Shown piece by piece: positions 5,545 through 6,758 of a stretch of DNA of 17,189 bases. The notes beneath the pieces were generated by a model. That model had not been told where the DNA came from, did no database searches, and was given only the letters and a program-made list of their open reading frames with translations. The position numbers were made by a program, and so were the translations under genes. Each line of letters starts with the position of its first letter. The stretch's first letter is position 1. The stretch comes from Candidatus Odinarchaeia archaeon (lineage in GTDB: Archaea > Asgardarchaeota > Odinarchaeia > Odinarchaeales > Odinarchaeaceae): positions 1-17,189 of the forward strand of contig JAHQXC010000023.1 of assembly GCA_029856525.1 (NCBI GenBank), written 5' to 3'.

Positions 5545-6441
5545 CTATAATACAGTAGCGGATGCTTTACTATTATTTATATTTACAATTTTAACTTCGC
5601 CTTTAAAACTACTCCAAGCTTTTTTAAGAGATTCAACTTCATCTTCATCTATTAACGCAGCTATAGTAGGTCCTGTTCCTGAAACACTTACACCTTTAGC
5701 ACCGGCTTCAAACGCTTTGAAAACAATATCCATCGGTGTATTATAACAGGCCCCGTATAGGAAGCCGTTTAAACTCATAGCGTCTTCCACTAACCCCTTC
5801 TTAACTAATTCTACTAAGTGAGGTATCAGCCCTCCTATAAGCTTTGTTTTATTAATCGTCTCTGGTGTGCGTGTTAACGGTTTAAACTCGGGGATAAAAA
5901 GAGCTACTTTCACTTTATCTGTGAATGGTTTCCTGAATATTATCTCCCGTTTAACATTATCTGTGAGAACTAAACCGCCGAAGTAGGATGCCGCTGCATC
6001 GTCGAACGCCCCTGTAACGGTTACCTTAGACTCTATAGCGGCTTCAACTCCTATTTTAATGATCTCTATATCTGAAGCGCCCACTCCAAGCGCTTTAACA
6101 GCCGCTAACACGACGGCGTTAGCCGCTGCACTGCTGCTTTTAAGACCTTTCCCTATTGGAATATTACTGTAAGTTACCACTTTAACTCCTTGATTCCTTA
6201 TATTATATTTTTCGAATATTTTTCGTATACAATTCTCTATTAATTTAGTCTCCGTGTTTTCAAACCCTGAAATCACATACTCATATTTCTCTTCTGGCAG
6301 TAACTTCACTTCCGCGCGCGTCCATAAATCTACTCCTATCGCAGAGCCTAAACCAGCCGCTATCGCGTTGATAACTGTTATAGCTCCATGTGCAACAGCT
6401 GCAGCTCTTCTATTCAATTCATTCACCGGTTTCCTGTTCAA
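5545..6441 (-). CDS. aroK: Archaeal shikimate kinase (GHMP kinase superfamily)
   Basis: HGAITVINAIAAGLG, GHMP ATP loop PIGKGLKSSSAAANA, TGAFDDAAASYFGG and SGTGP, in an aro context. TTG start after GAGGGG. Confidence 0.92.
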   Translation of the reverse strand: MNRKPVNELNRRAAAVAHGAITVINAIAAGLGSAIGVDLWTRAEVKLLPEEKYEYVISGFENTETKLIENCIRKIFEKYNIRNQGVKVVTYSNIPIGKGLKSSSAAANAVVLAAVKALGVGASDIEIIKIGVEAAIESKVTVTGAFDDAAASYFGGLVLTDNVKREIIFRKPFTDKVKVALFIPEFKPLTRTPETINKTKLIGGLIPHLVELVKKGLVEDAMSLNGFLYGACYNTPMDIVFKAFEAGAKGVSVSGTGPTIAALIDEDEVESLKKAWSSFKGEVKIVNINNSKASATVL

Positions 6442-6482
6442 CCCCTCTTTTTAAATTTAAGCGAGCTCGATTGTAATTTTTT

Positions 6483-6508
6483 AAGCATCAATGCTTTTTA
6501 TATTTTCG
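6483..6508 (-). promoter_or_regulatory. Putative aroK promoter with an adjoining palindrome
   Basis: The minus strand reads CGAAAA (6508-6503) then TATAAAAA (6502-6495), overlapped by the inverted repeat AAGCAT-tg-ATGCTT (6496-6483). Confidence 0.45.
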
Positions 6509-6529
6509 TATATTTACATGGAGATTCAC

Positions 6530-6738
6530 GTTTAAACTTTATCGGCGTGAAGTCCCCCTGTGAAAGCTGGGGAAGCTGAAAAGTATTTATAGTTTCCCGA
6601 TCTTTAAAAAGGATAGTGATGCGGTGCGGGGGGCAGCTCTGAGACGCATGTTGAAAGAGAGCCTCTACCGGTCGAAAACACCGGCACGCTTCATCATTGA
6701 AGCAGGAAACCTCATCCGATAGAGGGGGGGTAGTTCAT
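6530..6738 (+). mobile_element. Non-autonomous IS200/IS605-family miniature element (209 bp, no tnpA or tnpB)
   Basis: Left end: TCAC (6526-6529), then 19 nt later GAAG (6549-6552) at the foot of hairpin TCCCC..GGGGA (6553-6573). Right end: TGAAGCAGGAAA, an imperfect hairpin CCTCATCC-GATA-GAGGGGGGG (6710-6730), then TAGTTCAT. The pairs GAAG/TCAC and GAAA/TCAT follow the TnpA(Y1) guide-to-cleavage-site pairing rule known from IS608 and ISDra2. Confidence 0.72.
6575..6592 (+). promoter_or_regulatory. BRE/TATA promoter inside the mini-element
   Basis: GCTGAAAAG followed by TATTTATAG is a near-consensus archaeal promoter. The predicted start near 6613-6617 is where the GC-rich structured segment begins. 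Confidence 0.6.
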
Positions 6739-6758
6739 ACTTTTAATTTTAAGTCTGT
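6615..6758 (+). ncRNA. Putative TnpB omegaRNA (reRNA): scaffold about 6615-6738 plus a 3' guide from flanking DNA
   Basis: GC-rich segment of about 124 nt with hairpins GCTCT..AGAGC, CCGGT..ACCGG and GCTTCA-tcat-TGAAGC, then the right-end hairpin and TTCAT. The GAAGCAGGAA..GGGGTAGTTCA ending is characteristic of tnpB 3' ends. Boundaries are inferred. Confidence 0.6.

Follow-up and report, generated by a model that had tools for sequence, protein, structure and literature searches.

A probable PATE derived from a tnpB-only IS200/IS605 element between two shikimate genes of an Asgard archaeon

The shikimate locus and the layout of the repeat copy

The window, that is, the whole stretch of 17,189 nucleotides analyzed here, carries on its minus strand genes for a DeoC-type aldolase, DHQ synthase II, dehydroquinase, aspartate-semialdehyde dehydrogenase, shikimate dehydrogenase, a GHMP-type shikimate kinase, EPSP synthase, and chorismate synthase fused to chorismate mutase, in this order. 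The shikimate dehydrogenase gene (6947–7840, minus strand; Pfam Shikimate_dh_N, Shikimate_DH, and SDH_C) and the gene for the GHMP-type (archaeal) shikimate kinase (5545–6441, minus strand; Pfam GHMP_kinases_N and GHMP_kinases_C) overlap in all three congeners, whereas here they are 505 bp apart. The last ~9 codons of the dehydrogenase gene are unlike those of the congeners because of the insertion, which gave the protein a new nine-residue tail (C-terminus comparison). The kinase ORF is N-terminally extended and retains the ancestral GTG start inside (congener comparison). This means that a tightly overlapped aroE–aroK pair can be pulled 0.5 kb apart with both reading frames kept.

The original prediction placed a simple insertion at this site, but 551 bp (6428–6978) have no counterpart in the congeners; the element accounts for ~202 bp of them, and the other 349 bp are unexplained. 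The extra DNA on the left of the element (6428–6530) is unique and includes an AT-rich stretch resembling a promoter for the shikimate kinase gene that lies downstream, and that on the right (6739–6978) is likewise unique and of unexplained origin. Neither part is repeated elsewhere in the genome or matched in seven genomes of the order, and neither gave an nhmmer match to the family profile described below, even at E 100, with Smith-Waterman scores falling within those of shuffles. A 24-nt match of 6849–6872 to 6547–6570 (79%) and a AGCCTCTGCC match in the extra DNA, neither of them significant, give a hint that the right-hand part may hold a second eroded left end. The repeat copy on C126 shows a similar excess, with 326 nt where one congener (G001) has 1 nt; our guess is that eroded older insertions may be the source of such DNA. 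A CTAAACG[C/G]TTA-like motif occurs in three copies right of the element (6769–6779, 6829–6839, and 6947–6958), and its reverse complement, AAGCGTTTAA, occurs twice just after the right end of a related tnpB element (L073) in another genome, possibly by chance.

Between the two genes lies a repeat copy whose features are all on the plus strand. It follows a TTTAA target site (transposon-adjacent motif; 6531–6535), which belongs to the flank and not to the element, and an ambiguous base A (6536), which is assignable to either. The element proper (6537–6738, ~202 bp), delimited by family alignment and nhmmer and interpreted below as a PATE, contains ORFs of just 20–32 aa, one of which is a residual tnpB C-terminus, and a transposase ORF is absent. 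Its left-end module (6549–6574), read directly in the sequence, consists of GAAG (6549–6552) and the imperfect hairpin TCCCC...GGGGA (6553–6574). An archaeal promoter-like block, AAAAGTATTTATAG (6579–6592), with the TATA box TTTATA at 6586–6591, corresponds to the tnpB promoter of the parent element. The remainder (6594–6738) corresponds, by homology to the tnpB element L074, to the final ~135 nt of tnpB together with the right end, which would jointly form an omegaRNA/reRNA scaffold region. A residual tnpB frame of 44 codons (6588–6722) stops at a TAG in the right-end hairpin loop. The right-end module (6706–6738) is composed of GAAA (6706–6709), an imperfect hairpin (6710–6730), and the terminus TAGTTCAT (6731–6738; consensus TAGTTCAC). 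The adjoining flank, ACTTTTAATTTTAAGTCTGT (6739–6758), would act as the guide of an omegaRNA, should one be produced, as the guide begins directly after UUCAC in a characterized system (PMC11043419). A second full match to this flank was not found in the genome, and 6739–6762 gave just chance AT-rich 14–17-mers.

GAAG with its hairpin, GAAA with its hairpin, TCAC at 6526–6529, and TCAT at 6735–6738, on which the original prediction was built, are all present, and its right border at TCAT holds, in that the family ends there (6737/6738) with the consensus TTCAC. It had also called both ends apparently intact. All modules are indeed there, but the two ends are intact just roughly: the conserved C at the terminus is replaced by T (TTCAT vs TTCAC), an extra A follows TTTAA, and the right-end hairpin reaches only -6.9 kcal/mol, compared with -11 to -17 kcal/mol in well-preserved relatives. 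An internal stem of the "long" sub-family and of L074 is eroded in this copy. Single-sequence folding of the stretch gave modest z-scores against shuffles (-1.9 on the plus strand and -1.2 on the minus strand). No Rfam family was found in the window at gathering thresholds, with just noise at E up to 10 in 6400–7000, and ARAGORN found no tRNA or tmRNA in the window.

The repeat family and related tnpB elements

The window belongs to an Asgard-archaeal assembly of 1.32 Mb in 127 contigs (93% complete), which we searched for the repeat by BLAST and iterated nhmmer. Window 6531–6738 is one of 19 full-length copies of 156–205 bp, and nhmmer detected ~13 further fragments in the same assembly. Pairwise identity between the copies is 53–91% (median 77%), and the window copy is ~85% identical to its closest sisters. 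The copies, mostly intergenic, short, and non-coding, start with (T)TTTAAC TTTATCGGCGGGAAG and a hairpin and finish with GGAA[A/G], a hairpin, and TAGTTCAC; the left end of the repeat thus written out is (TTTAA)CTTTATCGG..., and the right end is ...GGGGTAGTTCAC. When the copies were aligned with 40-nt flanks, similarity set in at window 6531 and ceased at 6737/6738. The borders are sharp and asymmetric, and terminal inverted repeats and terminal complementarity are absent. Every copy keeps the left-end module, which related tnpB elements also have at their left ends, and the promoter-like block AAAGTATTTATAG is the best-conserved internal part of the repeat: its TATTTATAG columns are 90–100% conserved, and TTTATA is kept in 17 of the 19 copies. 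Several copies are truncated or eroded at the right end and carry internal deletions. The repeat is absent from three other species of the genus (G001–G003, one of them a closed genome).

More diverged left ends of the same superfamily were also seen (C93:3500–3629, C125:9458–9551, C125:9968–10115, C13:10371–10504, and C18:1814–1883). They show TTTAAC..., a hairpin, and a CTTATAAAAG-type TATA box, and their right end is often unrecognizable; the count of 19 full copies understates the number of eroded relics in the genome. A second mini-element family (C125:32–230, C71:10614–10760, C29:3851–3970, C77:29838–29927, and C78:10460–10531) consists of the last 24–49 codons of the tnpB type found on C93 (89–100% amino-acid identity), in one case fused to the first 20 codons, and its members look like PATE-like derivatives of another parent.

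Candidate parents were sought by a BLAST scan of 400 genomes of the phylum for left-end-only and right-end-only matches adjoining tnpB genes. L074 (genome G018) is a complete element of 1297 bp that begins with TTTAA-A-C..., continues with a left hairpin, a TATA box, and a gene for a 397-aa TnpB, and ends in ...GGAGTAGTTCAC. Its TnpB has the Pfam domains HTH_OrfB_IS605, OrfB_IS605, and Cas12f1-like TNB. Three further genomes contain Pfam-confirmed tnpB genes between matching left and right ends (L071, L072, and L073). The parent-type elements L071–L074 are thus tnpB-only, occur in other Asgard genomes, and have both ends in common with the repeat, so that the original expectation of tnpA/tnpB elements with matching ends was borne out in the form of tnpB elements. 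The terminus ...GTAGTTCAC is common to every well-preserved copy and every related tnpB element, while the window copy ends in ...GTAGTTCAT.

Positions 64–192 of the repeat profile, which comprise everything behind the TATA box, align to L074:2868–3005 (nhmmer, E 1e-13), and the homologous stretch of L074 (2868–3017) covers the 3'-terminal ~135 nt of its tnpB together with its right end. The residual frame of the window copy reads ...FIIEAGNLIR*, compared with ...VVEPGNSPR* in L074, and both end at the same TAG inside the right-end hairpin loop. These matches, together with the common stop, argue that the repeat is the parent's left end and promoter fused to its guide-RNA (omegaRNA) region. 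The homologous TATA box of L074 lies ~37 nt upstream of the tnpB ATG; the AAAAGTATTTATAG block of the window copy is accordingly best read as a putative promoter that now faces the guide-RNA region. That region has the composition expected of an omegaRNA/reRNA scaffold, namely the tnpB 3' end and the right end, and ends at the transposon boundary. The original prediction had left the orientation uncertain, and the direction of the parent tnpB, the promoter, and the residual frame with the same stop settle it as the plus strand.

A 244-bp derivative in another genome (L028:1500–1743, G007) is an independent case of the same kind of core deletion. One half of it matches one end of L074:1716–3017 (G018) at 97% identity and the other half the opposite end at 95%; it keeps the first ~16 tnpB codons, and its deletion joint is unlike that of the window's family. 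The host of L028 is a different species from that of L074, of the same genus.

The right-end module consists of GGAA[G/A], an 8-bp hairpin with a tetraloop, and TAGTTCAC. Its stems differ widely among related elements yet remain complementary, that is, the hairpin covaries between the invariant GGAAG and TAGTTCAC, and the hairpin loop (GATAG) contains the tnpB stop codon both in L074 and in the window's family. A wider scan for right ends, with an alignment of the four TnpBs as the query, found the module in elements labelled Borrarchaeum, Sifarchaeum, and Hydrothermarchaeales and in several bacteria, including Thermincola and Syntrophomonas, which speaks for the right end as described in the original prediction. 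These right ends (L101–L180) lie ~20–60 nt after each tnpB match and read ...CAGGAAGC, an 8-bp hairpin with a tetraloop, and GTAGTTCAC, with freely varying stems. In the Borrarchaeum copies, left similarity begins at TTTAT and is followed ~12 nt later by AGAAGA and a hairpin; the left end there is laid out alike, but its target differs slightly. When 22 right halves were folded as a consensus, the terminal hairpin alone was recovered because the alignment is heterogeneous. The rule behind the original prediction would have the fourth guide base covary with the terminal base (GAAA with ...CAT). Copies ending in T numbered 2 of 9 with GAAA and 0 of ~20 with GAAG, a difference that is not significant (Fisher p ~0.09).

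Identity, mobility, and possible RNA function

Window ~6537–6738 on the plus strand is very probably a PATE, that is, a protein-less internal-deletion derivative of a tnpB-only IS200/IS605 (IS1341-clade) element. What was observed directly in favor of this reading comprises the repeat family, its borders, its target motif, its absence from congeners, and the homology of its ends to tnpB elements. The deletion would have removed the core of the parent, so that the left end (GAAG and hairpin) and the tnpB promoter are followed, directly after the TATA box, by the final ~135 nt of tnpB and then by the right end (GAA[A/G], hairpin, and TAGTTCAC). Members of the family insert as single strands 3' of TTTAA without target duplication and end in TTCAC; they are presumably mobilized in trans by a Y1 TnpA, and a guide-RNA-like transcript may start from the internal promoter. 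The earlier claim of a protein-less, non-autonomous IS200/IS605 element is supported by the copies with common borders, the empty sites at other loci, and the matching tnpB ends.

The same element had been called mobilizable, a view that the divergence of the copies (53–91% identity), the lack of an empty allele at the locus, and the lack of a cognate autonomous element in the assembly leave unsupported. With ~85% identity to its closest sisters, a mutated terminal base, a weak right hairpin, and no cognate TnpB, the window copy is most likely an immobile relic. Neither an autonomous element with these ends nor fragments of a cognate-type tnpB were found in the assembly (93% complete, 127 contigs); given this incompleteness and the several contigs that end inside copies, a full-length element present in repeats could have escaped assembly. 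The assembly contains two tnpB genes (on C44 and C93), which show 23–34% identity over partial lengths to the cognate-type TnpBs. The gene on C44 is part of the assembly's one tnpA–tnpB element, whose tnpA looks intact and is the only one in the genome. The left end of that element is related to the repeat, while its right end appears different, with TCAA ten bases after the hairpin. The one public run found to contain the locus, available as contigs and probably from the source sample, contains other repeat copies and no contig that skips the element.

The tnpA–tnpB element on C44 (L021:1003–2903; G000 C44:8002–9902) has further features of its own. Between its left end with promoter and tnpA lies a ~47-nt stretch, GCGGGCTATGAGGACTCTGAGACACCTGTTGAAGTGGAACCTTTACC, that shares homology with the 5' portion of the guide-RNA region in the repeat and is followed by a perfect palindrome, ACGGTTTTAACCGT; the ATG of the next gene overlaps the tnpB stop. 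By its layout, this element may be nested in a PATE.

It is doubtful that the cassettes of the family are anything but inert, but two forms of such activity may be considered at low probability: they might yield transcripts on which a TnpB, resident or unassembled, draws in trans, or the cassette and the 349 bp of extra DNA might have split a translationally coupled aroE–aroK pair, giving the shikimate operon a new promoter and antisense control. Also improbable is a domesticated family of guide-RNA or regulatory-RNA genes kept by the host, whose omegaRNA-like transcript would act in trans with a resident TnpB or as an antisense or cis regulator, e.g., of the shikimate operon. The strong conservation of the internal promoter block would fit host retention, but a recent common master copy predicts it equally. 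Scaffold hairpins are retained with some compensatory changes, whereas the copies otherwise decay in a neutral-looking manner, with eroded or truncated right ends and internal deletions, and none lies at an orthologous site in congeners. Two TnpB proteins are encoded in the genome as possible partners, although both are distant from the cognate type, and the window promoter points antisense into the shikimate dehydrogenase gene, although the guide region has no second genomic target. The PATE reading, with the window copy as a decayed member, is favored over both.

The finding matters for annotation, in that small Asgard genomes contain gene-less IS200/IS605 relics by the dozen, and these may be taken for regulatory elements or for RNA genes of a new kind. 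Two specifics are of use in recognizing them: the Sulfolobus-type TTTAA/TTCAC rule is obeyed, and the right-end module is common to tnpB elements of several archaeal phyla and some bacteria.

Target site, left border, and comparison with known systems

The original prediction had the element at 6530–6738, with a left cut after a TCAC cleavage tetranucleotide, a length of 209 bp, and an empty site reading GGAGATTCAC|ACTTTT. A genome-wide BLASTN search for copies with the same boundaries, which it had proposed, did find many with common borders, and 6530–6738 lies within 1 nt of the limits of family similarity (6531; 6737/6738). TCAC ahead of the border is peculiar to this copy: TTTAA starts 26 of 26 left ends in the genome, whereas TCAC occurs within 10 nt leftward of 1 of the 26, namely that of the window copy itself, and ~20 left ends from other genomes show no TCAC consensus. 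From these counts and the empty sites below, the TCAC at 6526–6529 is a coincidence of the window locus.

Empty sites were sought by using the flanks of individual copies as queries against the same-genus genomes G001–G003. That of the C24 copy is clean and reads ...aaaactaTTTTAAATATTCGATG in all three relatives, the occupied site here being ...aaaactaTTTTAA-C[TTTATCGG...CAGTTTAT]-TATTCAATG. The empty site of the C109 copy reads ATTTAA|ATAGTTAAAC in the relatives, that of C51 reads TTTTAAA|TCTTCAATT in G001, and those of C32 read TTTAAT| and TTTAAG| in G001 and G002. At all four loci, TTTAA is found once, right at the junction, and there is no target duplication; TTTAA is therefore flank, and C TTTATCGG is where the element proper starts. 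At C24 and C51, where the right termini are mutated, the junction is ambiguous by one base. C30, the fifth of the five alignable empty sites, has no clean TTTAA and is too diverged to read, as are those of the copies at C93:16062, C29:13202, and C11. The window copy has no empty allele, as its locus sits inside the 551 bp that the congeners lack, so that the proposed search for one succeeded in related species at other copies and not at the window locus.

Transferred to the window, this rule would place the start of the element at ~6537 (C TTTATCGG...), with TTTAA at 6531–6535 as its target and a length of ~202 bp; the start thus moves ~7 nt rightward from that of the original prediction. The empty joint would read ...GATTCACGTTTAA(A)|ACTTTTAATT (with ACTTTTAATTTTAAG as another rendering of the right part), cut after TTTAA(A) at 6535/6536. 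The exact TCAC-cut version, with an element that is still mobilizable, is therefore very improbable and largely refuted already. A spacing of 19 nt between TCAC and the left hairpin does resemble that of IS608 (PMC3201880), and the family's own right end finishes in TCAC, which makes a TCAC-type left site conceivable by analogy. Against these points stand not only the left-end counts and the empty sites but also the age of the copies, the missing empty allele, and the fact that TTCAC is an end motif and fails as a target motif in the closest characterized system (PMC11043419). The left border was misplaced because the 19-nt left spacing of IS608 had been transferred, which illustrates that IS608 geometry applied by rule can yield a wrong border. 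A classical MITE or another repeat class unrelated to IS200/IS605 (REP-like or structured intergenic repeat) would likewise be short, non-coding, multi-copy, and mostly intergenic, but terminal inverted repeats and target duplication are both absent, and the homology of both ends to tnpB element ends, together with the empty sites, already refutes it.

IS608 of Helicobacter pylori has TTAC 19 nt before its left hairpin and TCAA 10 nt after its right hairpin (PMC3201880). The present family is like IS608 in its asymmetric ends, in its subterminal imperfect hairpins with a short sequence 5' of each hairpin foot, and in having the left cut site outside the element and the right one inside, so that target bases are neither gained nor lost. 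Unlike in IS608, TTTAA here lies ~16–17 nt from the left hairpin and TTCAC ~7–8 nt from the right hairpin.

In the IS605 elements of Sulfolobus islandicus REY15A, TTTAA serves as both insertion site and TAM; the right end closes with an invariant TTCAC, which the guide follows immediately and which fails as a TAM (PMC11043419). The pair of TTTAA target and TTCAC end found here is exactly the motif pair of those elements. The family further resembles the S. islandicus IS605/TnpB7 reRNA, as far as its published description goes, in having an RNA region that spans the tnpB 3' end and the right end. The S. islandicus elements are autonomous tnpA–tnpB elements with copies >94% identical and with demonstrated RNA and nuclease activity, whereas the present one has no gene and is a diverged derivative whose parent is a tnpB-only relative.

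The definition of PATEs, from Haloquadratum walsbyi, is that of IS605-related elements without inverted repeats, with near-terminal palindromes, without target duplication, too short to code, and arising in part by core deletions (PMC3119063). Meers et al. reported that PATEs often encode omegaRNAs that need TnpB in trans and described omegaRNA-encoding PATE-like elements in Geobacillus stearothermophilus (PMC10055086). The window repeat is like these elements in lacking terminal inverted repeats and target duplication, in its near-terminal palindromes, in being too short to code, and in the heterogeneity of its copies; it also shares with them a core deletion of the IS605/IS1341 type with the guide-RNA end retained. 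Unlike known PATEs, it resides in an Asgard archaeon, the guide-RNA region immediately adjoins the TATA box of the parent at the deletion joint, and the assembly of the same genome contains no cognate autonomous element. The kind of element has thus been described already, and the window repeat is a further example of it.
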